Below, in pieces: positions 33,836-61,680 of a stretch of 64,000 bases of DNA. The notes under the pieces are model-generated. The model was not told the DNA's origin. It did no database searches and saw only the letters and a program-made list of their open reading frames with translations. Where the stretch lies: the NCBI GenBank assembly GCA_973895155.1, contig OZ316892.1, positions 9,218,283 to 9,282,282 on the forward strand, given 5' to 3'. Position numbers and translations under genes: made by a program. Numbering within the stretch: the stretch's first letter is position 1; the number at the start of each line of letters is the position of its first letter. The stretch comes from Marsupella aquatica (Eukaryota; Plantae; Marchantiophyta).

Positions 33836-33900
33836 TTTCATTAGTATAGTGATCACTCTCGTGAGGGGGAGGTCTCAGGTTCAAAACTCGGGTCCTGAAA
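33836..33900 (+). other. Decayed tRNA-like / SINE-head-like sequence
   Basis: A-box-like TAGTATAGTGA, B-box-like GGTTCAAAAC and complementary ends TTTCA/TGAAA. Too short and irregular for a functional tRNA. Confidence 0.3.
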
Positions 33901-36659
33901 TGCTTTGACCCAAATTTGACTCGCAATAGTACAAAAACATGATAAGTTGGGGTTGCATTTAAATTTGAGAAAAATTAATAAATACAAGGAAAAGATAATT
34001 CATATAATATGATACCTCAAAATAATATAAGTTTGAAATAGAATTCATACATGTAATTTTTATTTGATAAGAGAAAAAAATGTATCAAAACCTAAATGTA
34101 TCTAAAAGACTAACCTAAATTAACCCTAAATCGTCCACCACCTAATCTGAAATAAATCATAAAGAATTTAATCTTTTTCTCCTCTCATCGTCAACCTTTC
34201 ATTGATGTATATACAAACCAGCATCTGAAGGATGAACACGCTCATCGGCAAAATATTTCTCAAGCAACAAGCATTGTATGCATCGACCAGCATCTAAAGG
34301 ATGAACACGCTCGTAGGCAAAATACTTCTCAAGCAACAAGCATTGTATGCATCGAGAACACTCCATCGATGACAACACAAAGCCAAAGTATATCTCCAAG
34401 AAAAAAGAGTTGCATCCAAATGTCCCGCCAAATGTACTAGATTAAGTGACTATAGGCAGGTCTGTAGCAAATGACTAGGTCATTGCTACCACCGGCTAGA
34501 GCAAACTCACACTAGTCCAAGAGAATACGATAGAAAACGACCTATGAACGACCCTAATGATCGAGCGCGTCCCTCCACGACCACCTAGGCAAATGGTAGG
34601 TTGCAAGCAACGCTTATGGCACCGCTTGCCCCAGCAAATGCCTATGAGGTCACTTTGGCCAAAAAAGGCAAAAGAATAAGCAATGAGAGGTTCAGAAGAG
34701 AAGAGAATGAGGAGAATGAACTGAGAGACTCTCCTTTTTATGCTAATCATCTATAAGTTCCTAATTAATGTCATACCTAAATTCATTAGCGACTAATTAA
34801 TATCATACCTAACCTAATTAAAAGCACACCCACCCATTCTTCTAGAATTACTCAAATAAAAATCTATATCTACATGTTGAAAAATGAGTGAGAAGTCCAC
34901 AAAAGGAATAAAAACACATTTTTTGTTTTGATGTTGACCCCCCTCTTGCAAGAAAAAGGAAAGATTTATAAAACCTGAAATCTCTCCATTCTTTGTCTTT
35001 ATTGTTCCTCCCCTTAAAAGACCCTTAAACCATCCATCGCTCCCCACTTCTAAGATAGAATAGGGGTTAGCTTGTTCGATACACTCAACTAGTGTCTGCC
35101 CCCTCTAGCAAGAAAAAAATATAAACAAATACCATTTTGAAAATCTCTCCCTTAAATACCCTTAAACCTCTCAGCAAAGAAAAAATTCTTTAAACCCTTA
35201 TTATTTCTCCCCTTAAAGTAATCCTCCATCCGGGCCAAAAAATAAAAATGTCTCTTTTTGTCTTTTTTATTTTCCCATTCTTTAAAATACCCTTGATTCT
35301 CTATCTGTTTTAATTCTCAAAGAAAATAAAATAATGAGATCAACCATAGGGCATGCTCCTTACTCATCGTTTTTTCTTAAAAAAAAAGCCCCTTTAAAAA
35401 TATTTTTGAGGTGACCAATTTCACCCAAAAACAAAAAGGAAGCCCTTTTAAGAGTCCTACCTTTTCAAGGTGACTTTGGTCCCAAAGGGAGATATATAAA
35501 AGCATTAAGAAATTCTGATAACTAAAAGACAAAGACATTAAATGGTGAGAGAATCAAGTACACATGTACATTGAGGGGGGAACATTTAATGTACTTTCAT
35601 TTGTGTTGAATACAATATACTCTGTGTACTCCAATTTGTCTTGATCTTGAGTACTCCATACAAACTTAGAAAGAGTGTTAGAATGAGTATATTGTGACTA
35701 AAGTATATTTGTGTGCCTCTATACGTATGTGGAGAAAGCATATGTGGAGAAAACGTATGTGGATCTCGAAAACGTATGCGCAGAAAAAAAGTTTGGAGCC
35801 ATTTTGGGCTCCCACCACAAAGCTGAACTTTAAGTTCAGCCAATAATTGAACCTAACTATCTGCGTCTGAATCTTGCAGGTGAAGCGAAGTTGGGAGGCT
35901 AGGGGAATTTCATTCAGGGTAATGATGTGAAGGTAATCTATTTTCTCACCCGTCGTTCGTTTTTTCTCACTTAGTCATTAATTTATCCTGAGTGAGAGAT
36001 ATCACTAGCTTGTATTAATCGAAATCACCCTCTGGACCCTGCAGGTGAAGAGAAGTTGCATGGGGGCGATTTGTTTTAGGAGAATGATGTGAAGTGGATC
36101 TAGGGTCTCACCCATTGTTCACTTTTTCTCTCTAATTCATTAATCCTGAGGGAGAGATTTCACTTCAATTGACATGGCTTCAAACTCTCACCCACATAAC
36201 ATGTTTAGATACATGCATGATACCCCGCATGATGCTAGTGTAAATATAGTTGTGTGAAAGCAAAGAAACAATGATGGTGAGCTTTGGGTCGCTCTGTCAT
36301 GGCCCGGTGGATAATTAAGGGCAACCATGGCTGAGTGGTGTGTGTACTAGATCTATTGTCATAGGGTCACGAGCAACCTCTTTTTATCATAACCTCAATT
36401 TAAGGAAAACCAAACTTTGGAAATTCCAAAAATCACTAAATATTATTATTTTAATAAAAAGGGGGGCGACATGACGCGTGGCTGCGCATGAAACCCTGAA
36501 AATGACTGCAACATCACATTTTAACCAATCCAACTTGACGGGACTAAGAGACATGCTCACGCGAATAATAATAATAGAGAAATAAATCTTTGAGATCCTT
36601 TATATATGATAACCAGTATATAAGGAGTTTACAAATGGTTTCTAGAACGACAATACAAA

Positions 36660-39040
36660 TTAATCTGATCTCATGCCGACTATTATTTTGGAAGCGTCCA
36701 AAATTGGGCGTCTGTTAAATTTCTCTACTAGATATCTATCTCCATGCCTCTGAATCACAGGGTCTTCCCATAGAGTATGATTATAATCATAATCTCTAAA
36801 AATAGATTTAACTGACCAATCAGGATAATCTCTTCCATTGGCAATGACAAGCGGCTCACAAGAGTTTGCTAGCTTGCTAAGATACGAAATCAGCAAGTTA
36901 ATCAGGAAACTGTCGTCGACCGACCCAAAATATTTGGGCGGAAATAATGATCCAACAATAGGATCTAAACAAGCATGAAATGCATCAGATTCGATAAGCA
37001 TTATATTTTGCTGCAGATACGCCTTTGTATAAATTCCAACCTTCTCAAAACACTTCAAAAATATCCGCTTATTTGATGTCACCCCATCGCATAAGTAACA
37101 ATGAGACTGATCCCAAATATACTTAAATGAGGCCATTTCCATCGAAGTAAAAATAGATGCTAAAATCTGATCTAAAAGGTTCTTCCCAAGAGAGGACCAG
37201 ATCCCTACATCAAAATTCTCAAAACAGAATCTCAAGAATTTGTGAAGATGAGGCCTTGGAAAACCGTATATATTCCCAATCCGAATTCCAGTTGAGACCG
37301 CCATCAGTCGGGAATGCGGTGCAGTGTAACAGAGTAGATGCTCCACATCTAAAACTATGAGCCCATTTTCTCTGCTGCAATGAATCTCCTATAGATAAAC
37401 ACAAGAAGATGCATGAGCCCGTATGGATGTAGTCATGCGAATGGTCGCGTCACATATTACAGAGACAACATCCTCTACACTCTGGCCATTGATAAGTGAC
37501 GTCTATTGAAGTGCTTGATAAGAACTTGATCCGCATGTCTTTGCACATATAGATGCTCCCATATATCCTCGTTCAAATCCCAATCTCGATGTAGATTTCT
37601 AATCGACCAGATGGGATAATCGAACTTGTTAGCGAATGCAAGACAAAGCCCTGAATTTGATAGCTTTCGTAAATATGGAATGAGGTCATCCCTCAAAAAG
37701 ACATAATCCAATGATCCTTGAAACGACTTAGCGAATAATAATCCGCATACAGCTGTCTGGCATGTATGGGAAGGAAAGGCATCAATCTGGATTATATTCT
37801 CTGGTCGATAATCTTGAAACGTATCACGTAGTCTCTCGATAGATTTGAAGACAACAGTCTTATAATTTTTCTTTACATAACCAAGATTCCAGCAATGATC
37901 CCGCGTGAACACATATATCAGCTGCGACAGGTCAGTGCTTGACATCACTTCTGAAAGTATCTGATAAACCAGTTTATCGTCGAGAATAGACCAGACCATC
38001 ACATCAAAATGATCATAACAGAATTTTATAAGATCATGAAGATGCGGCCTCGGAACGACACATAGAGATCCGATACGAATTCCGGGTGTCGACTTGAGCT
38101 GAGGAGTATATTTTGAAACAGAGCACATAAAGTTTTCCAGTCCTAAAACTAGAAGTTGACGCGACCTGCTCCACTTAGACACCTGTAAATGAACAATTCG
38201 ATTCTCATATTATGCAATTGCAAACAACCACGCGACCGGGCGCGTCACTCCCAAAATATAAAGTTCAGTTTCAATCAATTTATAAATAATAATTGATAAT
38301 AAACAATAAACGTTTACTTATTGGACTTATCTCGGGCTTCTATAGCACGGTCTTTTCGACAGATAAGTATTTCATAAATTCGTCAAACTTTTCTAAATGG
38401 TCTTTATTCCCCTTATTATGAATGATCACATTTCTCCTCCAAAGATTTGTCTTATCAATATAATCTTTCTCAAGATTTTCTTGAGAGAACGTTGGAATCC
38501 CATATCCACTAAGGAGCTCGCAGAATGTCAACTTGTCAATTGACATGTCGCATAGATATGGATATAGTTTCTTTCTAAAAAATAGGTCATCATCAAGCCC
38601 AGAATATGCATCGGGATACAACGATGAATAGAAGTCATTAAGGCTCATCTTATATGCAGCATCATCGATAAGAATGACATTCTCGATGTTGTAATCTTTA
38701 ATATTGGCGGCAATGTCAGAGAGACATTTGACAAATAAGGGGATGTCATTATTATTCTTCCCAATAAGTCGAGTTGATTCTTGTCCCCATATAAATTTAA
38801 TACGTTTCAAAACTTCGGATCGAAGTACACAAGATAGAATATTATGTTTGAACATGCACGACCAGATCACAATGTCGTATAGATCTGCCACCTTCTCAAG
38901 AAATTCCATTAAATCAGGCCTTGGATAGATAACCTTGTGCATCTGTCTCACACCCCTTGACCGAATGGGCATCCCAGGGCTAATCTTCTCTGACTAGATA
39001 AGTACCCGATTCAGATCAAAAATGACAAGTCTCTTTTGAA
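36660..39040 (-). CDS. Three tandem FCP1/NIF-family HAD phosphatase-like domains
   Basis: Each has PRP(D/H)L..F and IWS/VWS...(F/L)K. Motif I reads LVIFDLNRVL (domain 1, with LIDD), LVLGLENFM (domain 2) and IVLDVEHLL (domain 3). Domains 2 and 3 look catalytically degenerate. Confidence 0.85.
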
Positions 39041-39295
39041 CCGGTGACTTCTTTGCCGATGGATTAAGCGCCATCTGTACCTGTGATTTTTGTGCCGCAG
39101 GGTTTGGAGAACGTACTAGAACGGTATGTTTGTTTCCCGCCTCCGGACGATCACCGGACTTCCGGACTGGTGCCTTTGATACTCGATCAGGGGGTTTCGG
39201 GATAGGCTTCTGTAAAACATTAAGAAATGAAAATAAGTTTATAATGCGAACGGTGGCGTGACTACAAAGAGAGACACTGAAATAAAGTGTATTAC

Positions 39296-40084
39296 CTGTA
39301 CAAGACGGTCGTTCAGTGCTGGAATTCCGTTGGAAATGTCAATCATAGCAGCACGAATCCCGGTAACTAGGTTACTTGCGGACGTCGGCTTGCGGAAGTC
39401 CATGTCAAATAACGACAAGACTATCTTCCTACGGAATTTCTCAATTTGATCCCCGGCAAAATTAATTTTGTTTCCTTGACACAAGCACTTGGCGTATCTC
39501 AAGATAAACACACCACAACTATGGCCGTCACTCTGGTGAGGAATATCATTCCGATATATCCGTTCCCAACCTGAGAGATCCAAGTTGACACCAGTTCTCC
39601 AGCCAATTTCGTTGGCGTAGTACTTCCCAACAATATCTAGCACCCCAGGATTTTGTCGATTATGAACTAGAGAATCTAGATACTCGAGCCGTTTCTCCTT
39701 CGGATACACAACTACCAATGACCAATGTTCTTTCACAGCATTGTGTACTGGAAAGACCAGTTTGTCGTATTCACTGATTTTTAGCGGAAACTCCTTTGTC
39801 CAAGCTGCTCTCTCCTCATCGAAAATGGTAGGATCCATGGAGAGAAGCTCAAAATGGTGTGTTTGGAAGAATTTGACAAGGTCTGACTTTCCAACTCTAT
39901 CGAGAATCAGTTCGAGAAAACTCAAATAAGCGTTAATTATATCATCGGTGAGCAACTCGTGCGGTCTCAGACACATCATATATTTCCTCTTGATCGAGTG
40001 TTGTAAGAACTTGGTCAATAGCTCTTCCATATCCTTAGAAGGATCAAGGCATTGATCTATTCGACTAGCCAAATTTTCAAAAAA
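39296..40084 (-). CDS. Ulp1/SENP (peptidase C48) domain exon
   Basis: LTDDIINAYL, FPVHN..EHWSLVVV, YLDSL and QSDGHSCGVF. The His-Asp-Cys triad and oxyanion Gln are present. Confidence 0.92.
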
Positions 40085-40919
40085 CTGTAAAAAACAGAGA
40101 TTTCAGTACGCCTTCAAATAACGTACTGAGGTTGTAGCCTAAGGGTTCTACCTCAGAAAACAGAAACAATAACAAATCAATAATAAAATAATTACGTCTA
40201 TAATAGAAACTTTAAGCTTATAGCTTGCAAATGACCTTTGGATTGGGTGGATCCGGCCTTTTCGTAGCTGATCTCTTGGGTGCCTCCTTCGCAACAACAT
40301 CCTTCAGCCCTCCTCGAGACCGCAGTGATCGCTCCACCGGACCAGTTTGCGAAGGTTGGAGCGATGAGGCGGGAAGACCTTCAAATGGTTGTGGCATTTG
40401 ATTCAAATATTCCACAATCTGGGAATCCGATTCCAAAATATCCGGTGCCACGATTCTGTGCGAGTGACCTCTGCAATATATCGGGGTTGAGACCACGAAC
40501 CCGGTCGCGTCAAGTCAGCTATTAGTCTCCTAACGACTTGAGCCGAGTCTGGTGCCAAAGACGTTCCCAGGTCTTGCACTCGATTCTCGGAAAAGTGGAC
40601 ATTATTGATGATTGTCTCCATTCTGGATGTAGTGGCAGTCTTCTCCTCGGTAATCAAAAGACCCTTCCAATATTGCAAAGCAAGGACTACCTGGACTCGG
40701 AGCTGCTCCGGTGAATATTTATTCCAATCATCCAACGAGACCATACTTAAGGGTGGATCGTTAAATTCAGACTCCGGGCGAAGAAAATAGTCTAATATTT
40801 TCTTCTTAACTGCAACTGAGGGTGAAGAAGGCTTCTTCAAATTCAGCTTTATTTTCGATAGACGTTGTGCCTCAGGAATAAGCGAAAGATCCTTGGCCCT
40901 CTCGGCCTCCTTCCTCGCT

Positions 40920-41720
40920 GCCTCCAGTCTTGCGGCTTCTTCTCTCTCCAGTCTTGCGGCTTCTTCTCTCTCCGGTCTTGCGGTCTCGTCCGCCATCCTC
41001 TCGGCCAGCAGCCTCTCAGCCGCCACACTCTCCGCCTTGGCCCTATTTGCCTCTGTCACTAAAAGGACTCTCGCAGCCTCCTCTTTCTCAGCCTGGGCTT
41101 TCTCAGCCTCGGCTTTCTCCACCTCCGCTTTCTCAGCCTGGGCTTTCTCAGCCTCCGCTTTCTCCGCCTCCGCTTTCTCAGCTTCCGCTTCCTTCGCCTC
41201 CACTTTCTCAGCCTGGGCTTTCTCGGCCTCCGCTTCCTCGGCCTCCGCTTTCTCAGCCTGGGCTTTCTCCACCTCCGCTTTCTTAGCCTGGGCTTTCTCA
41301 GCCTCGGCTTTCTCAGCCTCGGCTTTCTCAGCCTCGGCTTTCTCCACCTCGGCTTTCTCCACCTCGGCTTTCTCCTTCTTCTTCGCGGCAGTTGCTTTTC
41401 TAGCTGCCGCCTTTTTCTTCATAGCCTCCTTCTTTTGAAGCTCCTCTTGCCGGGCCGCCTCTTGTCGGGACGCCTCCTCCTGCCGGGCCGCCTCCTTCTT
41501 TTGAAGCTCCTCTTGCCGGGCCTCCTCCTGCCGGGCCTCCTCCTACCGGGCCGCCTCCTCTCTGGCCTGCTCCTGCCGGGCCGCCTCCTTCTTTTGAAGC
41601 TCCTCTTATCGGGCCGCCTCCTGCCGGGCCTCCTCCAGCCGGGCCTCCTCCAGCCGGGCCTCCTCCTACCGGGCCGCTCCTCTCTGGCCTCCTCCTGCCG
41701 GGCCACCTCCTCTCGGTCCA
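40920..41720 (-). repeat. Coding 15-bp tandem repeats (EKAEA and QEEAR pentapeptides), predicted long charged helix
   Basis: On the + strand, GCTTTCTCAGCCTCG/C and CCTCCTCCTGCCGGG units. Confidence 0.9.
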
Positions 41721-44700
41721 CCTCATGTCAAGGCTCTTGTGTGGCCTCTTCATCAGAGTCCTCAGCATCCTCAGAACCCTCCATCTCCTCGTCCTCTTCA
41801 TTAGCGTCTTCAGCGTCCTTCATCTCCTCTCCGTCACTCTCTTCATCTCCTCTATTGTCAGAATCTTCGACGTCGTTCTGCGTATCGGTCATCCACTCTG
41901 GATCTTGGTCATTGACATCCCCATCTGCGTCACCTTCCCCCTCACCATCCGCATCACTATTGCTCCCTGCATCCTCAACATTGAAGCCGCAGTCGACTTG
42001 ATCTTAATAAAATCAGATCATTTGATAAGAATGACTCACGCGCATATTCGCGTGAAAAGAAATATTAAGAATGTCCACGCGCATGTTCGCGTGACGCAAT
42101 AAAAAGTAAGAGGTTTCAAAGTAACCTACCTTGGATTGGCCCACTAGGGTACTCCGTTGGTCGAATGTACAATCGATCGGAATCTTCAGAGAGTGCATAC
42201 TCTTGCAATAATTGATTACAAATATTATCAGGGATATGTTGTTCATGGAGGACATCCAAAACATCAGCCCTGAGAGCAGTTACGGATGGATGGTACTTCA
42301 TTAATTTATCTATACATTTTTCTATACTAGCCCGTACTGGGTCAATCAATGACAGCGTTGTATCAATTGTCGCCGTGGTGTGTTGCAAGAAACAAGACAA
42401 CTCCCTATGCGTTGCCATAGGGCAGTAATATTTTACATTGGATCCAGCATCCTGTAAAAACAACCAAAATTAGTTCACAATATTAATTGAGAATATAATA
42501 ATCTAAATAATCTTAAAATCAAAACCCCAAAATATAAATCTCAAAACTTACCATTAAGCACTGGATCAAGTTCGTTCCCTCACCGAAGCATATAGCCCAT
42601 TCCCCACATTGGACGAATTGACTAACAATACTTTCAAAGAATGGAAGTATCTTTTCTGGGGAAGGTGTCGTGAACTCGCCGCTCTCTTCAAAATTGGCTA
42701 TCTTCTCAATCCAATATTTGGAGACCAATTGGAACTCGAGGGCTTGTGGATCGCCCATTGTGCTGAAGGCCAAGCTGTGAAAAGCGTAGGTTACAATTAG
42801 CTTCTTCTCCTTCGGCCGCTTCTTAATATAATGGCTATCGACAGTAACGTAGTGTGTGTACTTCCCTAATTCCCGTTTGATTAAGTAAGACTCAACTAGA
42901 GAGGCTACAATAATAACCACATGGTGTGGTTTTGCCCCTATCTCGCTAGTAGCACGAAATAACCCCTCATAGAATGAGCAATTTGGCGGACGCAAATCTC
43001 CCATTGATGAGGGATCAAAATAAATCAAGCTCGTAAGGTTCTTGTCTTCACGTATGATACAGTCTGCAAACCCAGCATTTTGTATATCCTACAGGGATCG
43101 TAATTTTGGCCTCTCACCGACCGGCCGCACTAGTTGGTTTCCTTGACTATCAACTGATTTCTGTATTCCTTCCACCAACCTGTAGAATATCGGGTCGATC
43201 TCTTCAACAAATTATCATTACTAATATTTACATTTAAGCACTTCTTCAGATAACCACTCAACGCATCTCTCAACTGCTTTAGCACCATCTTGTCGAGCTT
43301 AAAGCGATCAATCATTCCTTTGACCCGCAATTTCCGCGCTGAATCTGTCAGACTTTTCAGCTCCGTCCGGGTGGATGTATCCCCGTTGAGTTTACTCAAT
43401 AATAAAATCTCAAACTCAACTTTTGTCTTCTTCTTTATACAAAATTGCTCCAAACTCATGCTGGTCGTTGACAACACTGGAGCCTCAGAGGACTTCAATC
43501 CTCGCTTTCCCAGATTTCACTTTGATGCGTCGGTTTTTGAGTATAGACAGTCTTCCACTCAACATATATTCCGCTGCCTTTCGAAGAACCAAGTCTGAGC
43601 ACCCTTGACAAGAATGGAATGTCTTCTTCAGAAGATGATAAGCACATGGATTATCCGCAATTTTGACAGCGTCCCTCTATAAAATTCCGTTGTAAATTAC
43701 AAGCTCTCCTGTCCTTGATAGTTTGTAGACCTCCATCCACTTCTTGAATGTTTCGTCCTCCATTGTAAAGAGAAACAGAGCCAATTCTCCAAATTTCATC
43801 ATTTTGTTCTTCCCCATTTGAGCCCATGGGCAAACAAAACTCATAGCTCTCATAAATACCTGAAAAACAATGGAAACATGACAATTCTAAGATTGACGCG
43901 ACCGTTCGCGTGAGAAAAATTCTAAGCTTGACGCGACCGTTTGCGTGGTAAAAGTTTAAACAATAATGTGATCGAAGAGGGTTATTTATATACCTTCCAA
44001 TTTGGATGACGATAATATGATCCAGGGCGCCCAAATGAGTTCCAGATATTACGACACTGTCGTACAATGGTGAGAAATTGTCCTTCTTCCATTGATGTTT
44101 GATGACAGTGGTTTAGAGCTTTTGATAATCCCATTAAATGAACATTATTGTCGTTGTTGAGCGTTGCCCAAAACATTACAGCTTCTACAGTACCACAAGT
44201 GTCTCGTACAACTTGGCTGACTTTGTCGTCCTCTTTCAGCAATTTGTAGGCCATTATTGTGTGCTGGCCTCCGAGTATCCAAAAATGATTGGTCATAATG
44301 TCCTCCTCCTTTGGTGCCGAATCGTAGGGTGCCCCATTGTAGTCGGGATCTCTGTCGGCCTCCGACTGAACCCACTTCACAGGGACTAAAAAGCAGCATC
44401 GCTTTTTGAACTTTATAGCCGAATGAGAGAGGAGTGAATTTTTTAGCCTATCTGTGTAATCCTGATTCCACTCTCGGCACTTGATGTGGTCTGGTGCAAG
44501 ATGACAACGTGATGTCTCAACAAAAAATGACTTGTTAAATATATTCACAGCACTATATTCTTTGAAGAAAAAATCAAACAGAGCCCCGACATTCGCTGAG
44601 GTAATTACTTTCGGAAGATTCTTCGCCGAGTATACTTCAACCTTGGTCACTGGCGGGGCCTTTCCCAAGCGAAATCCCTGGTTGAAAGGAACTCTCTAGA

Positions 44701-45374
44701 ACTCAAGTACGTCAATAATGTATTGACAAATCAAATCTCCCGTTGATCCCTCTGGATCAGAAGGATATCCCACACTAGTAACCTTTTCCAAGGCATGCCT
44801 TGCACCTAGAAGATCATCGATTATGGGCTGATTGAAGGTTACATATTGCGTTCGATCCAAACAAATGCTTATTTTGTCCTCCTGTTGGTCGTCGCTGACT
44901 AGCAGAACCAATCCCTCTGTACACTCTTTAACTTTCATGTTCTTCTCAAAGAAACACCCAAGAATTTGTGATCTCTCCAAAACTGTAGCTTTATCATTTT
45001 TTGCCACCACAAGATGGACAGCCCCATTGCGAACGACTATTCCAAAATTGGATATCTCAGTCGATTCAAAGAGATGGATACTCTTTGTCTCCGTTGTTCT
45101 CTCGGGGGGTTGACTATCAAAAATTTTAGAAACCACGTGCGATCCAACATAGGTATTTTTGACAGATTTTAACTAAATTTTTAAAAAGAGTAGGAGGCAA
45201 AAGAAGGTATTATAAACTCATGTTTATAGAATATTCTTTAATATATACCCTTTATAAAGTAAAATAGGTTATTAATATTGAAAATAGAGAATATTCTTGG
45301 AATATTTTCTTTATAAAATAGGTCTATTTATATTAGGCTAGGATCGCACGTGGTACCCCAAAATATACACTTAG

Positions 45375-46130
45375 TTAACCCCCCGAGGTTATTCTCTCTC
45401 TGATTGACTTTCCTCGATATGCAAGTATGGATGTCTCCGTGGGAGTCATTTTTGTCTTGGCTTTCTTACGAGAAGCAGCTTTAGACGAGTCTCTTTTCCG
45501 CTTTGAAGTTCTGGTAGGATCCATTCTGAAACAAACAAATATTGAAAGTTAAACGTTTATTATAAAATACTAACACGCGCATGGTCACGTCGTGCCGAAT
45601 TACATTTTAGGAACGTTTATCCTGACCCAATCTTCTCGCTCATCTTCATCTAACCAAAACCAAAGGTTCTTAAACGTGTCAAGTTCAGATCCTTCAAATC
45701 CACCCAGAATGTCCAGTGGCGGGAGAGTTCTGATGGATTCTGTAAATCTGAATGCTACACTTCGTGAAGTCAAATGCCTTCAAAGCGATTCATATCCTAG
45801 TCTATCAGTGAAGTCGTAAGCTACCAAGGTGACCGTCGCCCAAGTACTACTATAAGTAACTATGTGGCACCACTTCTTACTGACTGTTCGAATGGCGATC
45901 AAGTCCATGACCCGATTTTTAATCGCATTATCCGACAAATTCCCAAGACAATGGAAAAACTCTTTGACTAATGGCCAAATATATTTCTCGACAATATCGT
46001 CCGGAAGACCGGGTATCAGGTCTTCAGCTTGACTCCATATCATGTTTCGGTTCATAACCTTTGCACGTGCAATGCGCTCCATCATCATTTGACGATGAGA
46101 TTTTTGATTCATGTCAAAGGACTGCAACAT
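45375..46130 (-). pseudogene. F-box-like repeat/paralog 3 with basic C-terminal exon (intron 45603-45526)
   Basis: LIPGLPDDIVEKYIWP...IRTVSKKWCHIV. After the in-frame TGA at 45780-45782 homology continues (LPPLDILG...LDEDERE). The last exon KRKRDSSKAASRKKAK is NLS-like. Confidence 0.7.
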
Positions 46131-46164
46131 AATATGGAAAAGATTAAGAACAAGAACCTATCAA

Positions 46165-46731
46165 TTAAGAACTAGGACCACCTAGATTCTGAGAAAATCT
46201 TCCAAACCTTTCGATTAGAACATCTCGTTCTTCCTCATCTAAATAGTTATATTTGTTCATAAACAATATGATTTCGTCAGAAGTAGTAGTCCCAAGAACA
46301 GATATTTCTGGAAGCATAGAAATATCCTGTCGAATAACTCGACAGACTGAGTCAAACTCCAACTCGTCAGTTTCGGGGATGTAGTAAAGTGCTTCATTTG
46401 CGTCATCGAAAATCTGGTTTGCTTGTTTGAGGATAGCCCATAACCTTGTATTTGTAACTAAAAAGTTCCACTTCTTGCTACAAGCTCCAAGCCGAATAAG
46501 GTCTCGGACCCTATCGATAACCAAATCGTTATCGGGGTGTTGATATCAATGCAATCCTTCAATTGAAATAAAGTGTTTGTAGAGTATTGGCCAAATGTTT
46601 GAAATGACCAAAACATTTGGTATTCCTCCAATGAGACTAGAGGAGGTTTCATCCAGCGTATCCCATATTATTTTCTATTTCTTTTCATGAGATGAAAGAA
46701 AATCTCGAGCCTCATTCAAAAGTTGGCTCAT
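46165..46731 (-). pseudogene. F-box-like repeat/paralog 2
   Basis: From ATG 46731: LIGGIPNVLVISNIWP...LGACSKKWNFLV...LPEISVLG...LDEEERD, with two in-frame stops (TAG, TGA). Confidence 0.7.
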
Positions 46732-46796
46732 CCTGCTTTTATCATATCACAAAACATTGTTAGAAGACATACGACGCGCTTGGTCACGTAGGTTAA

Positions 46797-47120
46797 CTAG
46801 AATTCCTTAAAAGCGTAGATGTCACCCTCAAGGTATCCAACTTCGTGGCATCTAACTGTAAATTTCCATTTTTCAAGAGGGTGAAGAGCATCGTAAGTCT
46901 TCGTGAAGAGTTCCCTAAGATCTCTGGACATTGACCCCATAAATTTAATTCTTGGGTATTTCTGGAAGAAACTTTGAACTATCGATGAGAGAGACTCATT
47001 TCCGATCGGTTTAGTAGGATTTCCTGGGAAAGCCAAATCTAATAAACTCAACTTGATTACACCCAGAAGATAGGTATTCCCAACAAGGTGGCATCATCTG
47101 CGACACACCAAAGATAGTCC
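46797..47120 (-). pseudogene. C-terminal half of F-box-like paralog 1, split by the transposon
   Basis: GLSLVCRR*CHLVGNTYLLGVIKLSLLDL aligns with IRTVSKKWCHIVTYSSTWATVTLVAYDF of paralog 3, and is in frame with 55471-55244. Confidence 0.8.
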
Positions 47121-47684
47121 TACAAAACAAGAAGCCTTAAATGATGAGTAACAAGCCCATACTTTAGGAACTCTAGCCAAAAAATCAGAAAAACAACGAA
47201 AAAGTCAAAAAAAGTGCAAAAATAGCACCTATTTTAGAGCAAAAATATGGAGCGAACAAAATATGACATAAACTAGCTATGTTTTGACACCTAAAAATGA
47301 CCAAATTCATCTGAAGTTACATTCCACCAATAAATGATCTCAAATACAACACTATTATCTACAATGGTCTCACAATTACACGAGGTGTCTTTTGAAACAA
47401 CAACTAAATCACCTCCAAAAGCCATTGTCATTTAAAAACCAGAAAATAAATTACTACAACTTAACCTGATACACATTATTGTGAAAAGAAGACAAGGAGA
47501 ATAGAAATGACACCATCTAATTGAATTGAAACACAACCCACTAAGATAATATTAAATTACAAATTTCTCAAGAAACTTTAACCATGAATTCATGAATAAG
47601 TGGTAAAGGCATTTTGAAAATTTGTAAATTTTCAACTTATCCATGTTTTTCAATGGTAATGTCACAAACAATAACTACTTTTCA

Positions 47685-50600
47685 TTACTCAGATCCAGAA
47701 GTTCTCAATTCTTGAAACGAAATATCCCTAGATTTATCTCCTAGCGGGGTTCTAGTTGATCCATTCTCTTGTTCTTGCTCTTTCTCTTCTGCCAAAAATT
47801 CAGTCAATCGGATTTTGATTCGATCTACTGTCTTTTTGTACAATGTATCAGATTTTGTCAACATGAAGTTGTAAGCAAAAACAGTCGTTGAAGATAAATC
47901 AAGCTCTTGGTGAAACCATATTGGTTTCAAAGTTCCTTTCCCACGACCACTTTTCTTCTTTTCGTAGTTTAAGACTTCTGGTAAGTACTTGGCTTTCCAA
48001 GGATCTGACCCGGTTTTTGGAGCATGCCATAAAACATAAATCATTTTTGGAATGTTGAACTCGTCGCGCTGGTCAATTCTTTCCACCTTGGCCACCCAAA
48101 ATGTTTCCGATTCTTCTCCAGCAATAGAAATATAAGTGTTGACTTCAAGATCCGAAAAGTCTCCTTCCATATTCTCCTTCTCTGCATCTATCTTTCCTTG
48201 ATTCCGATAAGGACCCACGTATATATCTCTGGTAGGTCCGTATACTCTCTCTTCAATTTCCTCTTCATTGACAAGGACTCTGGGAACTTCAGCAGCAACA
48301 GCAATCTCCCTTTGGGAGCGTGGCCATTGAAAAGGGAAAATCAATGGTCTTTGATCAAGGAGCAAAGATTTATTCAATTCCCGTTGCTCTTCAAAAAACA
48401 TTCTCCACCAGTTCACTTCCTCTTCTGAGAATAAAGTTTCAACTGCAAGTATTCCCTTTTGAATCTCATTTAACGAATCATCCATCTCCTTCAAAGTCAT
48501 TCTTGAAGAACTAGACATATTTGGTTGAGTCCTTGTAACGTTCTTATCCCCCTTTTTGAAAAGGGGTAATCCGGGAGCACAACCCATCACCTTTTCTGGC
48601 TCCTCTTCCCTCAAAAATTTCACGCCTCCGTCAGGTTTCCAAGTTGAGTCCGTGGAAAACTTCTTCCCCCATTGGGTTGGAACTTGATTTTCCAACTTGT
48701 CAAATGCAAATTTGTACTGGTGGTGGAAGGTAACATTTCGAATCCTTTCAATGACTAAAGGTGGATCTGAGAAGGCATATTGACGGAAATCATATGTTTC
48801 CTTTAAAAGAGTGATATTTGGTTGGGGTTGATATGATTCACAAATAATATCACATAGGCTTTCGTATGTGAATGCCTTAAACCTTGCTAGTCGTTTAGAA
48901 AATCGACTGAACATTTGATCTATTTGGTCGTGTGTGTGTCCAACCAACAAGAATCCTAGTTTGATTTTCCGAAAAACCTTTCTTCGAATCAACATATGAA
49001 GATAGGCAAAGAGTAAATTATTTTTATTTTCTCTACTGGTATTATCAAGTTGAAGATAGAGAACAGGCGGCAAGCCACCAGGCTTTTCTTCCCATTCGTG
49101 AAACACCCTTTGCAGGATTGTGACTGTCAAGTTTCCATCATTATGCAATACAGGATAATTAAGAAACACTCTTGAAAATAGTGCACCATTGAAAACCAGG
49201 CATCCGACAACGTGCATTTGGATCAAACATGTTTTGTCCACCGATTTTGGGGGCCGCGGCCAATGAGGCAACCTTGTCTTCTTCTGATCCATCCCATCAA
49301 TGACAACTCCCAAATATTTATCAGAATTTGAAAAACATTTCTTACGATGCTTCGCGAGTTTCTCACGTTCTTTGGATTGTTGGTCTCTATGTTTTTGTAA
49401 CATAATTTCCCCTCGCCCTGGAAAAACAACTTGTTAGTTTCTTCAAAAAAAATTAGAAATCATGTGTTAAGCCATATTCTTGAAACAAAAACTTGTCAAA
49501 CTTGTAAGCAACTTACTCTTTTCGGTCTCCGAGACAGCTTTGTCCCAAATTGATTTGAACTCCTCGCAATCCGCGCAAGCACTGAATCGATTGACTGGAG
49601 GAATCTTCACATGACCAAATTCTTGAACCCAAACTTTCAAGAATTGTCGATAGGATATTTTTGAAGATTCATCAATCTTGGCATAGTTGGAGTCGTAGAT
49701 CTTCCATACCTCCAGCTTTGAATAATTATCCGGTAAATGTGAAACTTCTTTATTTGGCAATGTTTCCACGCGTGTCTCAAAAAATGACCTAAGCCAACTG
49801 ACCAAGACTAATCTTTTAACAGATGGAGGGCGTCCAACTGGTTTAGAATATCCTAAGTCTTGGTTGTCTAATTTCAAAATTCTATTTAATCTATGATTGC
49901 CAACGCAAAATATAAGCTTGAAAGCTTTCCGACAAATACTCTTTTGACCAAACGTGTAAGATATAGTCTGCCTCCCTCCTTCATTTCCATCTCGCTTTAT
50001 AAGCCACTGCAAAGATAAAGATCGATCCTGAGATTTCTGCCTCAAAAATTTAGAACGCGCCTCACGAATTTCTTTTGGAGATAGACTTAGGAGACAATGA
50101 CTCTGACAACAGTACTTACTATTTGTTTTCTTGATATCCTCCTCTTTCAACTTTGTTTCACACAAAGTGGCATTGCTCGTACGTTTGTAACGACTAGATG
50201 CCACCGGAACATCATCATCCTCCCCACTCTCCGAAGACTCGCTTTCATTCGATGATGAAATGGTCACCAACATTTGCTTTTGAACATGCCTAGATTCCAG
50301 ACCTGCAGCCTTCGGAGATGGAGGCTCTTCCTTCACTCTATGCACCCTTGGAATACCTGGGCGTATTTCAGAAATCCCTCCATTACCGTGTAGGGACCCT
50401 TTCAATATTTTCCTAGGGTCCCTCTCCACCAGGTTGGTTTCCCTGTTTGAGTTTCCGTGACTTGATCCGCTCCCTGCCCCAACACCATGACTCCTAGGTA
50501 AAACTGAGGAACGCACATTAGAATTCTTTTCTGGAATACTTTTCAATAACACTGGTCGTCTAGTTTCTTCCCTCATCCCCCTGTGAAATGTTTCCGACGT

Positions 50601-50945
50601 TGGCTTACCAAAGGTTTTACTTTTTGGCATTTGCTTCAGCCGCTGAACACTTTGCAGACTGCAAAAATCTCTGTCATTTTCCCCACTTAGTGCCTTCTTC
50701 GTCTTTCCAAATCCAGTCTTCATGAATTCATGAGACCGTTTCCCAGACATCCAAATAGGCATTGAACCTTCCAGATTACTCCCCAATTTGTCCTTTGTTG
50801 GTGACAAAGGAGATACAACTTGACGTCCAGGGGGACCAATACTCTCCAAGGAGTCAGAGGAGCTCCCTGACCTCTCTTTACCACCGACCAATGATTTCTT
50901 CCCACTAATTGCAAGTCGTAAAGGACTACGTTTTAACTTGCTCAT
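47685..50945 (-). CDS. DDE/D-type transposase, DUF7869/Sola-like; exons 50945-49517 and 49417-47685 (1053 aa)
   Basis: Cys cluster CCQSHC...ICRKAF and FSACADC, then VIDGMDQ, LQLDNTSRENKN and FLLVGHTHDQIDQMFS. Phase-1 GT-AG intron at 49516-49418. Located between the TIRs. Confidence 0.85.
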
Positions 50946-51631
50946 AGGGGTGGGGGTGGCATATCTAAAACAGTAGTTATTCCAGGGATATCTGGGCCAA
51001 CCATTGTGCAGGGGCCATCCGGCAATGAAACATCATCAGAAACTCCATCTGAATAATCATCTGATTCGTAACACGCCGCCATTGGAAAAACTAGTGCAAA
51101 TTGACAAGAAACTCAGAAAATCAGTAAAATCTAACAAATGTTCTCAAAATAATGACCAAGAGTCATGAATAAACGAGCCTATTTATAGTTTTTCACGGAT
51201 TGTTGGGACTTTTTAACTTCAAAAATATCAAATATTCATGAAATTTGCAAGCTTTTTCCCGTTAATACCCCGAAATATTCATGAATAATTGGCCCAAAAA
51301 CATTGATTTATCATGATTCTGGGTTAATTTTACTAAGTCACGCCTGATCCGTGATTAGTATGTATAACCAAGGAACACGGGCCAGCCCATTCATTTTCAC
51401 TCAATGTCATTTGGATTTCCTTTGTAAAAGAGTGAAAAACAATCTCGATATCCAATTTCGTGCCATTTTCAGCACTCATCGGCGACGTGTCGCGAGTTGT
51501 CGCGGTCGCACTTCATTTCGACCCTATTTTAGGTAGTAATTTAGGCCCTGGGTGATTTCTTCATGTCACCCCCCTCCGAACCCTATTTTAAATACCCTTC
51601 TGCATCACCGAGGTGTACAAGCAAAGAGAGA

Positions 51632-51696
51632 GGAGACTCCCTTCATGAATTCATGAAGGTCGGAGCGAGAGGGAGACTCCCTTCATGAATTCATGA
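51632..51696. promoter_or_regulatory. Direct repeat (period 40) of a palindrome in the divergent promoter region
   Basis: GGAGACTCCCTTCATGAATTCATGA occurs twice. Perfect 20-bp palindrome CCTTCATGAATTCATGAAGG at 51640-51659. A regulatory role is inferred only. Confidence 0.55.
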
Positions 51697-51861
51697 TAGG
51701 AGTCCTGGGGTGGCCGAGAGCGTTGTTAGATCCGTAAGGACACGGTTTTAGTAGCCATTTGTTGGCACATTCCTTGGTTCTGTGGCACTTTGTCTCGCAG
51801 GTTGGGGTTGAAGTGGACTGATTTTGTGGTATGTTCTCAGGTTTGAAGATCAGGCAAAAAC

Positions 51862-54800
51862 ATGACAATGTCGCAGGAAGAGCTGGTGGATGACATCTTT
51901 TCGCGCCATCCTTTGACGGACTTCCACAACTCATCCTGGACGATTTCCTTAGGGATGGAAACATGGAAGAAGCCCTTCCTAATGCTGTGTGTATTTGAGG
52001 GGCTTCCATCGGGGGCATTAGGGTGGGTAAATTACGGCCGCATCGATGTATTTCGACGGGGCGACGAAGTTGTGAACATGTTGATCACAACGAAGGAAAC
52101 ATTAACTTTGATTGTCGTGGATGTGGAGAGGTTTTCTGGAACGGCTGCCACCTGCTATCTCGATGAGGACATCGATAGCATCATTGAGACTGTCAAGTCT
52201 CTTTCGAGTGAGGAACGTTACCACGACGTCGCGGGAAAGATTTCCGGTTTTGTGTTTGAATTTCACGCTAGCACTTTAAAGAGTGCAATCCGAAAATCAA
52301 GAGAGATTCTCTGGAAAAGGTCGGCAGAGAAGGGAGTAAGTCGTCCACCCAAATCTGGGGCTTCCGGTGTTCCTTCTGGATCGAGGCCTAGCATTTTACC
52401 CGATGATATTTTGACCGTGGTAGCGCCTACAACCTCCCGGGAAGCAGCAGCATCTGGAGGGGGATCTCAAGTTGGCAGATCATCCCAGGGAACGGCTTTG
52501 ATTGGTGGGTCGGCACAAGGTACGACTGGAACTCGCATTTCTTCAAAGAAGCGACCTGCTATGACTCCTGAGCCTACCGAGCCCAGTGCTACAAAGTCAA
52601 AAACGAAGACTTTGGAGAAAATTCCAACGCATTTGGAGCAAAAGGCTCAATCAATGTCAATGGATGCACGGGTATTGTACCAGGAGGAGATTCTGGGAAG
52701 ATGTGGTGTTCAAGAGGAGACCGTGACCGTTGACATTGGTCAACTTTACCCTCCAGTGAGAGAGAAGGCTGTGGGCTTGCCCATTTACCAGGTCCGACAC
52801 ATCCAACCATATTTCTTGACCCAATTGACCTTGCGGATGAAGAATGTAGGTGCCAGTCCACTTGCAGCTCCGTTTGTCCTCTTGGTGGATCCGAAGGAGT
52901 GTGCTACTAGGCAAGACTTTGATTTTTCAAGGAAAGCTGATTACCATTATTATGTGATTGGGGGCAACCATTCAGCCTGTGCCAAAGCAGACCTTGCTCT
53001 TCAGTTCCCTAACAACAAGGCATTTCGGAGAGTGCAATCTTGGATATTTGCGGGATTGAGTGTGCAAGAGGCAAGAAACCTTGCGTGGAGTCACAATATT
53101 GATTCTGAATTTCGACAACAGATGACGACAATCCAGAGAGTAAATTATATTCACATGAGATTTGTTGAGAATGGATTGTCGTCCAACCAGGATTTCAAGA
53201 AAGAGTGTGCTACTGAAATCAATCTCAAGGATTGGGGTGTACGAAAGGATGCTGAGGTTCTTAATGCCAATGATAACCTATTTCAGTTGGCATTCCGACA
53301 AGATCCTGTGTGGTCATTTGTGAGGCAGATTTGTGACAAGTGGGAGATGTGTGAGATCAAAGGTCAAAAAGGAGACAAAGGCAAGAAGAAAGTCTCTAAG
53401 TCTGGAGATGCCAAATTGCCTTATGAGGACATGAAATTAACAGAGTGGAGACACATGCAGGCCTTGAAAGATCCTGATATGATTTGCCCAGTGTTACAGA
53501 GAGTTCTTACTAAAGAACTCTCTTTACAGGAAATGGGTCATGAATTTACTCGACACAAATTTCAGATGCAGGTGCAGAAGGCCTTCCTCACGTGTCTACA
53601 CGAGGAGAGTTGGTCAGGTTGTAAAACCAAGTACCCTGAGCATTGCACAGACAATGTGCTTAAGAATTTTGTACCTGTTTTCCAGACATGGGTAAGATTC
53701 TGTCACCTTTCTTCGAATGATTGTTTGAATTCATTTAATATTTGGAATCCTTGTTTCTAATTCTACAGTTCCTTTTTGTAGAAAGATACCACCTCCCGGA
53801 AAAAGAAGGGAGATGAGGAAGGCAAAGATCTCAAGTCATTCCCGGACAAATTCAATGCGCATATTGTGCAAGCCCAAAATTGGCTATCCATGAAGACTTC
53901 TAGTCGGCAAACCCAAGAGGGGGAACTTCATCCAAATTCGTTTGAGCATCCAGAGTTTGGTGATGTGCACTATGATATTTTTACTCATGATGCTCAGCGA
54001 TTACATGAGGTGGTTCCGGGTCGGGCTTACACATTAGCTTTAGTGGATATTCCCTACGGGTTTGCATTGCCTGGATGTCTTCATGAAGACACTATTGGAT
54101 GGGGAACTGAGGAGATCACAAAAATGGTCCAATCGTTCAAGGTGGCTACTACTGCAAAGTTGTGGCGTATTATCATTCACCACAGCCTTGACCAATATGA
54201 GGCCATCAAGACCGTTTTGAAAGCGGAGTGTAATGGAGGGTTCCAGAATTGTGTGTGGTAAGAAATATTTGTTTTTGAAAAAAACAACTATTAGTTATTC
54301 ATGATTTCATGAACCATGTTTCTCAGTTTAAATAACTCCTTGACTTTTTGTGACTTTTCAGGGTTAAGGATAATGTGAAGAATGCTGGTGGACCAAGATT
54401 GAACAGCAACTTTGAGTGCTTTACAATTGGCTTTCACAGCCAGGATGGTAAACGGTCATTGGAGCACTTCAATTTTGACACAAATGAATCAAGGAACAAT
54501 GTGGTTGTATGCGCAGCTGTGACTAAGAAGCTGAAACACAACGGGGATAACAAGGCAGTGAATGTTTATCAGAAACCACGTGCATTGTTAGATTGGGAAG
54601 TGAGTCATTTTAGTCAGGTTGGAGACTGGGTTTTGGATATTTGTTCAGGATCAGGGACTGGGACAACCTCCTCCTTGGCCATGGGGAGACATTGCGTTGC
54701 CATTGAGATTGACGAGCGACAGAGCAGTGTGTTGAAAGGGAGGATTCTTAACCTTGTAGATAACATTGAAGAGGAAGACGGACAGGGGGAGATGGATGAG

Positions 54801-54923
54801 GAGAGTGAGGAAGACATTCCTCAGGCCGGAGAGGATAGCGTGGTTGACGATGCCACAATTGTTCCAGAATTGACGACAGGGACTTCCGGAACCGAGGAAG
54901 GGGAAGCGGTCCCTTTGGATTAG
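51862..54923 (+). CDS. ParB-like domain fused to a beta-class N6A/N4C DNA methyltransferase; exons 51862-53691, 53782-54257 and 54362-54923 (955 aa)
   Basis: ParB-like QVR..., YYVIGGNHSACA and LAWSHN. MTase motif IV LALVDIPYG (54046-54057), WVKDN created by splicing, YQKPRALL, motif I VLDICSGSGTG and GRHCVAIEID. Acidic tail. No stops. Confidence 0.88.
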
Positions 54924-55243
54924 ACTAGATAAATAGAGGGACTCGTAGCATTTGAAACCACTTGGGCTTAAGTTGGGTTATATTTTGTAAAACTTTGAGT
55001 TTGACTTAAACTCTGATCGATGAGTTTGATTTTGATTACTTTTATAAAGTGCATATTTCAAGGTTTATACAATTGTGAGAATATCATATAAGATATGCTT
55101 AGATTTTGGTGGTAAAATTCTCTTGAGTCTAGTTTGGAAAATACATACCATTTTTTGGTGGTTTTTTGGTATACACTTTTTAATATCATGAAGATTTTGA
55201 AAAGAGAAATAAGGCTTTGGACTCATCCCTTAAGGCTTCTTGT

Positions 55244-55471
55244 TACAAACTCATCCAATTCTTTTATTGAGAAATTTCCTGCATTAGCCGAGGAATTAAA
55301 AGACTCCTTGATCCGAGGCCATATCAATTCCGCGACAATAAAATCTGGAAGTCCAGGTAGTAGTGTTTCAACAAATACCGAATATCCCGCCAGTAGACCA
55401 TCTTGGCTTCTATCCAAAACGTCAAATATTAGGCATAGATATCTGAAGCTCTCTAGACCAGGTTCGCCCAT
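55244..55471 (-). pseudogene. N-terminal half of F-box-like paralog 1
   Basis: LLPGLPDFIVAELIWPRIKESF...ELDEFV, cut exactly at the transposon terminus. Confidence 0.8.
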
Positions 55472-55512
55472 GACTTTTTTCAGCCAAATGATATATCCCA
55501 AAGATTATTTTC

Positions 55513-56710
55513 ACGCGACTGGTCGCGTCTACAAATCAGAATGTATAAACAATTCTTTGAGACTGTGATTTTTTTGGGTCACAACGTGACAAATCATAAA
55601 TGTTGCTTCGTCCTCTAACAGAACCAGTCAATGAGAGAGCTACCTCAGACGCGATTGGTTGCGTTACCTAATCCTAAATGGAACGGTACCTCCTCTAACA
55701 AAACCAGTCAATGAGAGATCTACCTCAGACGCGACTGGTCGCGTCAACTGATCCTAAATGAAACCTTACCTCCTCTAACAGAACCAGTCAATGAGAGATC
55801 TACCTCAGACGCGACTAGTCGCGTCAACTGGTCCTAAAATGAACCTTACCTCCTCTAACAAAACCAGTCAATGAGAGAGCTACCTCAGACATGACTGGTC
55901 GCGTCAACTGAACCTAAACAACTATATCCACTAAACCTTCCTTGTGGAGATTTGGATATGGTACGCGCTCAATAAATCTATCCAGTTTCCTTCTCACACG
56001 CGACTGGTCGCGTCAACTGGTCCTAAAAGGAACCTTACCTCCTCTAACAGAACCAGTCAATGAGAGAGCTACATCAGACACGACTGGTCGCGTCAACTGA
56101 ACCTAAACAACTATATCCACTGAACCTTCCTTGTGGAGATTTGGATATGGTACGCGCTTAGTAAATCTATCCAGTTTCCTTCTCACACGCGACTCGTCAC
56201 ATCAACTGGTCCTAAAAGGAACCTTACCTCCTCTAACAAAACCAGTCAATGAGAGAGCTACCTCAGACGCGACTGGTCGCGTCAACTGAACCTAAACAAC
56301 TATATCCACTGAACCTTCCTTGTGGAGATTTGGATATGGTACGCGCTCAGTAAATCTATCCAGTTTCCTTCTCACACGCGACTGGTCGCGTCAACTGGTC
56401 CTAAAAGGAACCTTACCTCCTCTAACAAAACCAGTCAATGAGAGAGCTACCTCAGACGCGACTGGTCGCGTCAACTGAACCTAAACAACTATATCCACTG
56501 AACCTTCCTTGTGGAGATTTGGATATGGTACGCGCTCAATAAATCTATCTAGTTTCCTTCTCACACGCGACTGGTTGCGTCAACTGGTCCTAAAATGAAC
56601 CTTACCTCCTCTAACAAAACCGGTCAATGAGAGAGCTACCTAAGACGCGACTGGTCGCGTCAACTGATCCTAAATGGAACCTCACAATCTTTTCACGCGA
56701 CTGGTCGCGT
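55513..56710. repeat. Tandem array of 80-bp units and 189-bp (109+80) higher-order units, with 14 copies of the ACGCGACTGGTCGCGT palindrome
   Basis: Palindrome copies start at 55513, 55649, 55729, 55809, 55889, 55998, 56078, 56187, 56267, 56376, 56456, 56565, 56645 and 56695. Confidence 0.95.
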
Positions 56711-58021
56711 CAACAGCTCAAACAACTTTTGGATAATAGGATAATACAGTGATACAGTGATACAACTGTGATTACTGACCCGTACGGACAAGGAAATCCG
56801 AGTAAGCATGATTTCATTCATTTGTATTCATTCATGAACTTTACAATAATTCAGATGTTTGAGCTCTGTCATTGTGAAACTATTATATATCAGAAGTTTA
56901 GAGAATGATCCAGCTAAGATGATTCAATTTAGCAGTCTACTAGTTATATTCGTCAATTAAAGGATTCAGTGTAATGAGATTCACATAACATGAGAGTTTA
57001 TATGATTAAATTCACAGCGTGCAAGTTTGTAATGACTTACTTAAGACGATTCAGGTTGTATTTTAATTAGTGAGTTTGTATGATTCAGACATATTTGAGT
57101 TTACAAACAAACCGCATTATGAAAACTCAGCTCAACAATCAAGAGAAATTTTAGCAAACAACAATCAACACCAACAGAAAATGTAGAAATTGCACCTGAA
57201 TTCTGAAAAATTGATGTAATCGTCTGAGAGATTGACATCCAAGCACTTGAAGACCTTGCTGCGGCATTCCAGAAAGTAAATATAAGATTGAAGATATTAA
57301 TATGCTAAGCAACAACAACACAACTTCTATACTTCTATACATAAAGCTTCGCTGCCACCAATTGAATAACATGTGCTTAATGCTAAGGAACTCATTATGT
57401 CGAGTTAAAAAGACTCTTTCAGAAGTACAATCACTAGTAGAAAACAATGTATTTTATGACGGAAACAATGACTATTAATCAGGTCTTTTTAACAAAACAA
57501 TGACGCAATCGTTCTTGTCTTTCCAGACGCGTCACAACGGACATTTTGGTCACGGTCCTTTTGGACAAATGACGCTAAAAACATGTGGTCATTTCATACT
57601 ATCCTAAATGACGGTTTTTATGATATGGTCATAAATGCTGAACGGTCCAAAATGACGACACAAATCACCATCGATGGTCAATTGCCGTTGACCGTCGACG
57701 GTCCCCGTACCCAATCACACAATGACACGTGGCCATCAAAAAGCAAATAACATTGGTCATTTTGGACTTGTCCAAAATGATGTACATTATATAACAAATC
57801 AAATAGTGACACATGGTTCAAAGAGGATTCACCATTTGGCAATATATTTGGGTCATTTTGGACGTGTCCAAAATGACTACGATATAAACAAGTCATATTA
57901 AGACACGTGGTTCAATTAGGAGGAGACACATAAAGATACACATTAGTCATTAATGACATGTCTTGAATGACATAAAATGAGTCATAGTGGACTTGTTTAT
58001 AATGACCATGAGACATATACA

Positions 58022-61662: not shown

Positions 61663-61680
61663 TCCCCGGCAGCGGCGCCA
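61663..61680 (-). promoter_or_regulatory. Primer binding site, tRNA-Asp type (Athila-like)
   Basis: The minus strand reads TGGCGCCGCTGCCGGGGA, one mismatch from the Athila-type PBS TGGCGCCGTTGCCGGGGA. Confidence 0.88.

Follow-up and report, generated by a model that had tools for sequence, protein, structure and literature searches.

Different 16-bp palindromes in two nested transposable elements of a liverwort as candidate binding sites of their predicted ParB-family proteins

Self-targeting by a transposon-encoded protein is regarded as proven for VANDAL elements only (10.1101/2025.02.11.637652; statements on this and the other papers cited here refer to the parts of them available to us). 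The targets of the Arabidopsis VANC proteins are short, family-specific motifs in introns, intergenic and terminal regions that have been multiplied in tandem; the VANC21 motif is a 9-bp non-palindrome, the VANDAL carrier is Mutator-like, and hypomethylation has been proven for VANC (PMC5735166). Two proposals bring ParB-like proteins into this picture. In Ectocarpus, Sola1-1_Ec32 encodes a ParB-like and N4/N6-methylase gene opposite its transposase, for which self-binding and modification have been proposed (PMC12477816), and in red-algal Plavaka elements the ParB-like accessory gene PAG3 lies beside tandem inverted-repeat arrays, again with self-binding as the proposed role (10.1101/2025.02.11.637652). 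The concept itself is not new, ParB accessory genes with inverted repeats having been proposed for algal transposons in 2025. Here we describe a 64,000-nucleotide stretch of the liverwort Marsupella aquatica (assembly GCA_973895155.1, contig OZ316892.1, positions 9,218,283 to 9,282,282; the window hereafter, whose numbering we use throughout) in which two transposable elements, one inserted into the other, each encode a predicted ParB-family protein and each carry a palindrome of their own.

The outer element carries the palindrome ACGCG-N6-CGCGT at 25 sites, 11 of them dispersed and 14 in an array that spans 55513-56695 (Table 1). Four of the dispersed sites are exact, five have one mismatch in the arms and two (39244 and 40495) have two. 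All 25 had been picked out in a preliminary description made from the letters alone, and when the whole window was scanned with a matrix the same 25 and no others came out on top, with scores of 32.0 to 15.5 and 9.6 for the next match. The motif also exceeds background: nine sites with at most one mismatch lie in 36300-47125, whereas the mean count over 300 dinucleotide shuffles was 0.06 and the highest 2. The scan found none in 1-36300, in the inner transposon or in 56800-64000, which agrees with the reported absence of the motif from the inserted transposon and the housekeeping genes and extends to the flanks. When the spacer between the two arms was varied from 0 to 13, nine matches appeared at 6, one at 2 and none elsewhere. 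Once the inner insertion is discounted, sites or site pairs follow each other at intervals of 0.6-1.8 kb. Other copies of the element tell the same story at two positions: among the 40 best-supported differences (of about 1450) between this copy and contigs from public runs, two concern motif arms, where every contig that covers the position has the consensus letter (G at 36488 in three runs, C at 39255 in 4/4). The palindrome set is a real, selected feature.

According to the preliminary description almost all of them occupy introns or spacers, and 11 of the 12 non-duplicated sites (the 11 dispersed ones and that at 55513) do fall, in predicted introns or gaps, within the 13% of the outer element mapped as non-coding (binomial p 3e-9, a value that is partly circular since the intron borders were drawn by eye). 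All introns of the outer element are predictions from the DNA sequence. Ten candidate introns or gaps were checked and eight allow an in-frame, stop-free GT-AG join, as do six of the seven gaps that bear a motif; some gaps offered several GT/AG pairs, and in three the sole pair is in frame. At the 43993 donor, homologues P0168-P0171, P0001 and P0002 stop right after a WKV-like word, which is what a shared intron would produce. The tandem array is built of 80/109-bp units with a higher-order period of 189 bp, its unit being a 7-bp inverted repeat. This placement in introns, spacers, ends and tandem repeats matches that of the VANC targets (PMC5735166), a likeness that the preliminary description had drawn and that holds.

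The nested element uses a different word, which the preliminary description had overlooked, as it had the published proposals for algae. It contains four exact copies of the 16-bp palindrome TCATG-N4-CATGA where 0.02 are expected, one of them in an intron of its ParB gene, and the two vocabularies do not mix: the outer element has 21 copies of ACGCG-N6-CGCGT (at most one mismatch) and none of TCATG-N4-CATGA, the inner element zero and four. A metagenome scan for the inner family yielded five related loci (L001-L005); viral contigs and prokaryote genomes, searched as well, gave no related locus. L001 and L002, whose proteins are 70% and 67% identical, hold four and three exact copies (shuffle means of 0.015 and 0), with matches at a spacer of 4 only. 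Each has one palindrome in the same intron as the inner element; the other letters of that intron barely align, and the central four letters of the sites differ. In the inner element, L001 and L002 alike, the sites are grouped shortly before the ParB gene and within its intron, and all three share the predicted recognition helix VLNA(N/H)DNLFQLAF, whereas L003 and L004 differ in this helix and are without the palindrome. As judged from sequence, a 16-bp palindrome is tied to the ParB gene in the inner family, and by analogy this may extend to the outer family. The idea of self-recognition, put forward before on the strength of the outer element, gains independent support because the nested ParB element has a different palindrome, conserved in an orthologous intron. 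The inner palindrome also occurs in a low-complexity region opposite the ParB strand, at 50719 in the window and in L001:283-360, a placement that parallels the outer site at 40495 inside an open reading frame (ORF).

The case for a ParB-type partner is clearest for the inner element. The model of its protein (predicted local distance difference test, pLDDT, 92) matches Noc and ParB over about 280 columns that take in both domains (E 1.6e-5) and KorB over residues 20-302 (Z 8.3, root-mean-square deviation (rmsd) 6.4, 193 aligned), whereas against the DNA-binding domain of KorB on its own Z is only 4.8. Searching solved structures by sequence gave no hit (best E 0.99). The gene runs on into a methylase with DIPY and DICSGSG motifs that, from its sequence, is intact-looking. 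Its exon 52660-53690 has relatives in 232 clusters, and N6_N4_Mtase reaches E<=0.01 in 6 of the 29 longer inner-family clusters scanned, five of these lying above the Pfam cut-off. For the outer element, the exon part 43985-44695 aligns with the inner family profile (hhalign 95%, E 3e-8), and its model (pLDDT 67) has ParB as the top Foldseek match (E 4e-3) and superimposes on KorB/PadC (Z 8.3, rmsd 2.8, 93 aligned). On these models the outer element encodes a ParB-type N-terminal domain, and to that extent the ParB-like protein of the preliminary description stands; the helix-turn-helix of the outer protein was undetectable, and in this copy a premature stop sits at the 44696 boundary of the exon. 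An alignment of 81 rows shows the pocket residues G102, H104 and N146 to be nearly invariant (73, 73 and 74 rows), although the GxxRxxA motif of which an arginine would be part is lost. The named homologues of both proteins come from the liverwort Calypogeia fissa, in keeping with a seed-free plant as the host.

We propose that ACGCG-N6-CGCGT is probably the cognate binding site of the outer element's predicted ParB-family protein and, going by the sequences of both elements, that each ParB-family protein is likely to bind its own palindrome. A ParB-type dimer would read the two arms through its two helix-turn-helix domains and load at the array and the intron sites, marking the element as self. 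Domains joined to it would in this way reach the element's own chromatin, in the outer case a Ulp1 protease, F-box and NIF units and a methylase-like part, in the inner case a methylase that looks intact, and the outcome would be an element that is kept under-methylated and transcribed. That the pair has such an anti-silencing effect, as VANC has for VANDAL, is an analogy to which we give, overall, somewhat less than an even chance. It gains indirect support because the observed-to-expected ratio of CpG (o/e) is 0.83 in the outer element with the motifs masked, compared with 0.45-0.61 in flanking host DNA and other repeats. A broader thought is more tentative still, namely that bacterial ParB has become, in the transposons of eukaryotes, an address system in which every family puts a 16-bp palindrome of its own into introns and arrays in order to defeat silencing, the ParB dimer carrying fused chromatin tools along the element. 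If this were true, the two orthogonal pairs would be the first protein-site pairs to be defined. Self-targeting through ParB, if true, would amount to a second route of anti-silencing that evolved independently and is apparently widespread, with pairs that can be retargeted. In the window, two different ParB proteins, one with an intact-looking domain, can each be given exact candidate sites next to the other's; the inner site is conserved across species, and the proposed class becomes directly testable.

A number of observations speak against this proposal. The motif GxxRxxA, which serves CTP (cytidine triphosphate) in ParB proteins, is replaced by GGNHSACA and GGQHTIMA in the ParB-type proteins of the window, the arginine is not conserved in the alignment and EN(I/L)QRE is likewise not kept; CTP-driven sliding is doubtful because GxxRxxA is absent. 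Exon 2 of the outer gene, broken here and the expected place of the helix-turn-helix, gave no significant match by profile, and the methylase part of the same gene is borderline, again with no significant profile match; a likeness noticed by eye was given no weight. A site is missing from three of the 10 candidate introns or gaps, and one of the sites lies in coding sequence. Among the relatives, L003-L005 have no copy of TCATG-N4-CATGA, so that the motif is present in two of five loci, the two closest; the other three are distant (41-49%) and CpG-poor (o/e 0.13-0.35), and two of them are only about 1 kb long. The intron footprint across relatives is known from the inner-element family only. 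Furthermore, of the 16 arm mismatches that the outer motif shows in this copy, 14 are CpG transitions (C>T or G>A), because of which the sites were probably methylated at times, and this CpG decay, together with a CpG o/e of 0.61 in the inner element, which is not raised, counts against the anti-silencing step in particular. Lastly, a family scan of 19 ORFs found no transposase among those of the outer element, which must therefore move in trans, and a transposase that acts in trans may exist.

The rival that fares best shares the binding step with our proposal and differs in its consequence: the ParB-palindrome pair would be a repressor or copy-number brake, in the manner of KorB autoregulation. 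The repressor KorB is indeed among the closest structural matches, the sites of the inner element, L001 and L002 gather closely in front of the ParB gene and inside an intron of that same gene, and the inner element is not CpG-rich. Against a brake stand the raised CpG of the outer element, the tiling of sites over the whole of it and not just a promoter, and the precedent of BisD, a ParB-like protein of a bacterial mobile element that activates its element (PMC12409273). We consider autoregulation unlikely; what chance it has falls within the probable case that the protein binds its palindrome.

It is rather improbable that the palindromes are instead read by a transposase or a TnpA-like factor (DUF7869 in the inner element, an autonomous partner for the outer one) with ParB as a passenger. 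The need for mobilisation in trans would suit such an arrangement, as would the array near one end of the outer element and a single site near the other, and transposases and TnpA regulate cognate copies via clustered motifs (10.64898/2026.08.24.746577). However, most dispersed sites are 1-10 kb away from the ends, TnpA binds termini at non-palindromic motifs of 7-10 bp (10.64898/2026.08.24.746577), and the inner motif, which is found in the ParB-gene intron in 3/3 close relatives, follows the ParB recognition helix.

We regard it as very unlikely that the palindromes act as hairpins in pre-mRNA or single-stranded DNA, or are neutral remains of a small repeat. It is true that predicted introns house sites, that duplications of 35 bp (43896/43931) and 39 bp gave rise to two of the pairs, and that the array unit is itself an inverted repeat. 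Yet the arms are invariant and without compensatory changes, and position -1 is G or C in 11 of 12 sites, as is position +16, but the two pair in only 2/12, which points to the reading of sequence and not to pairing; flanks of different sites cannot be aligned to each other, sites are retained in other copies, and an Rfam search of 33-58 kb returned 0 matches. Most improbable of all is a host transcription factor for CGCG boxes (of the CAMTA or E2F type, whose consensus is such a box) recruited by the sites. In its favour, the arms are CGCG boxes and the array is upstream of the first exon, but 36 kb of host genes and flanks hold zero sites, the spacer is fixed at 6 and the word of the sister element is equally long but unrelated.

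Table 1. Features of the two nested elements, in window positions
Feature	Position	Strand	Remarks
Outer element	36347..56979	-	ends approximate: left 36.2-36.35 kb, right ~56.98 kb
Motif site	36474..36489		near left end; 1 mismatch; G at 36488 in other copies restores consensus
Three tandem NIF/FCP1-like domains	36660..38993	-	
Motif site	37435..37450		predicted intron 37480-37389
Motif site	38230..38245		AT-rich gap 38317-38183; GT-AG present, frame unconfirmed
Ulp1/C48 protease domain	39242..40102	-	E 2e-20
Motif site	39244..39259		predicted intron 39295-39210; 2 mismatches; C at 39255 in other copies
Motif site	40495..40510		within ORF; 2 mismatches; sole coding exception
Two motif sites (42038, 42077)	42038..42092		predicted intron 42129-42003
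Possible degenerate methylase-like exon	42522..43088	-	weak, not significant
Two motif sites (43896, 43931)	43896..43946		35-bp duplication; ParB-like gene, predicted intron 43993-43860
Outer ParB-like exon	43985..45100	-	ParB/Srx N-terminal fold in 43985-44695
Separate high-copy 287-bp insertion in first ParB-like exon	45101..45387		depth spike; joint 45096-45392, ends loose
Motif site	45575..45590		predicted intron 45603-45526
Two F-box-like units	45783..46545	-	under Pfam cut-off
Motif site	46774..46789		gap between F-box units; weak predicted intron 46797-46736
Nested Sola-like DNA transposon	47126..55244		32-nt terminal inverted repeats, 4-bp ACAA duplication
Further copies of TCATG-N4-CATGA	47581, 50719, 51642, 51682		1 mismatch at 47581
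Inner transposase-like gene (DUF7869)	47688..51032	-	E 3e-51
Inner ParB + helix-turn-helix + N6/N4-methylase gene	51847..54923	+	three exons
TCATG-N4-CATGA (16 bp)	54298..54313		intron 2 of inner ParB gene
14 motif copies	55513..56710		one at 55513, then tandem array; upstream of element's first exon

Set beside the described systems, the inner element shares the layout of Sola1-1_Ec32, with a ParB and methylase gene on the strand opposite the transposase, an arrangement that in the window belongs to the inner element only. No target motif is given in the available part of the Sola1-1_Ec32 account (PMC12477816), whereas here the motif is named and conserved in an intron, and the host is a land plant. 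Inverted-repeat arrays within the element are a feature in common with the algal PAG3 system, where the protein is fused to a 2OG-oxygenase and the repeats lie beside the gene (10.1101/2025.02.11.637652). In contrast, the outer sites described here extend through predicted introns over the whole element as well, and the words of two elements residing together differ. A limited literature search found no report from a bryophyte or other land plant, nor one of intron-placed sites. VANDALs also carry an Ulp1-like gene, and the VANC domain is DUF1985, for which we know of no ParB fold; neither this domain nor a Mutator-like transposase was found among the 19 scanned ORFs.

With ParB-parS, Noc-NBS, KorB and BisD-bisS the locus shares the ParB N-terminal fold, as predicted from models, and a palindromic site of 16 bp, and in the model of the inner protein a putative helix-turn-helix domain follows this fold, the alignment with Noc, ParB and KorB running across both. 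True membership of the parS class was considered and rejected, GxxRxxA being absent and no ParA family appearing among the 19 ORFs; the reference for the motifs GxxRxxA and EN(I/L)QRE, and for a parS sequence to which the sites here are unrelated, is PMC11229316. The comparison with parS made in the preliminary description accordingly survives as an analogy of geometry and lapses as an assignment, and a segregation role of the ParB-parS kind is implausible for an integrated eukaryotic transposon. In placement the feature behaves as VANC targeting does and in geometry as parS does, and it is a member of neither. BisD is of particular relevance as the ParB protein of a mobile element that activates its own element (PMC12409273). 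A family of methylases fused to ParB and helix-turn-helix domains is on record from chlorophytes and chytrids (PMC4738411), and other transposon-borne epigenetic enzymes have been listed (PMC12730594); a connection with DN4MT1 of Marchantia and N4CMT of rotifers was entertained and dropped, ParB going unmentioned in the available parts of their accounts. A final lead concerns DUF3723, which denotes accessory cargo genes of fungal Starships with unknown function (10.1101/2021.12.13.472469). In ESM Atlas the two window proteins have DUF3723 clusters as their top feature match (0.96 and 0.95). Pfam PF12520 (DUF3723) was not called on either and the connection is a lead only; if the idea of an address system is true, the same role might also explain these genes.

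The inner element is an insertion in the outer one, as a joint 47120-55244 in 3/4 runs corresponds to the outer element with its site empty. Terminal inverted repeats and a 4-bp target duplication are features of Sola transposons, and the insert is termed Sola-like on account of its inverted ends of 32 nt, the duplicated ACAA and a gene for DUF7869, which we take to be the Sola transposase. Both elements have many close copies. In contigs of the public runs they are covered much deeper than diverged contigs (in run X1 about 490 for the outer element and 484-621 for the inner, compared with 21, depth not being copy number). The phrase 'decaying DNA' of the preliminary description therefore suits the copy at hand and not the family, given its many close copies in other runs.

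With the insertion removed the outer element is about 12.5 kb long. In-frame joins at 8/10 gaps (36660-55470, minus strand) suggest one very long protein, in which the order of parts, as read from the sequence, would be three F-box units, ParB, the methylase-like part, acidic and coiled repeats, Ulp1 and three NIF domains. The third F-box-like unit, recognised by eye, is interrupted by the inner transposon; also by eye, the catalytic residues of Ulp1 seem intact and the DxDxT motifs of NIF seem degenerate. The class of the outer element was approached through its ends, where a search for terminal inverted repeats gave none above 9 nt. TC and CTAG near the inferred ends brought Helitrons to mind, a candidate set aside because the 3' hairpin that Helitrons have ahead of CTRR has no stable counterpart (z +0.66) and RepHel is missing among the ORFs. 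An 11-bp direct repeat near both inferred ends (36193-36204 / 56981-56992) may be a target duplication or due to chance; the flank contig depths differ.

The left part of the window holds intron-containing host genes such as TFIIB. A separate 2.1-kb insertion lies at 33740-35842, and its empty-site joint 33739-35843 was seen in 3/4 runs; it contains a strong hairpin at 33754-33775 (z -3.4), and the segment 33749-33786 is common to many unrelated contigs. Two-copy tandem repeats occur in the left flank at 32587-32726 (69 bp), 34217-34355 (69 bp) and 35859-36144 (about 163 bp). On the right, 57432-64000 holds the CACTA-like start CACTAGTAGAAAA, accompanied by subterminal repeats; a gypsy gag ORF (57953-59476) comes next, and the outer element might continue past the insertions in this region.

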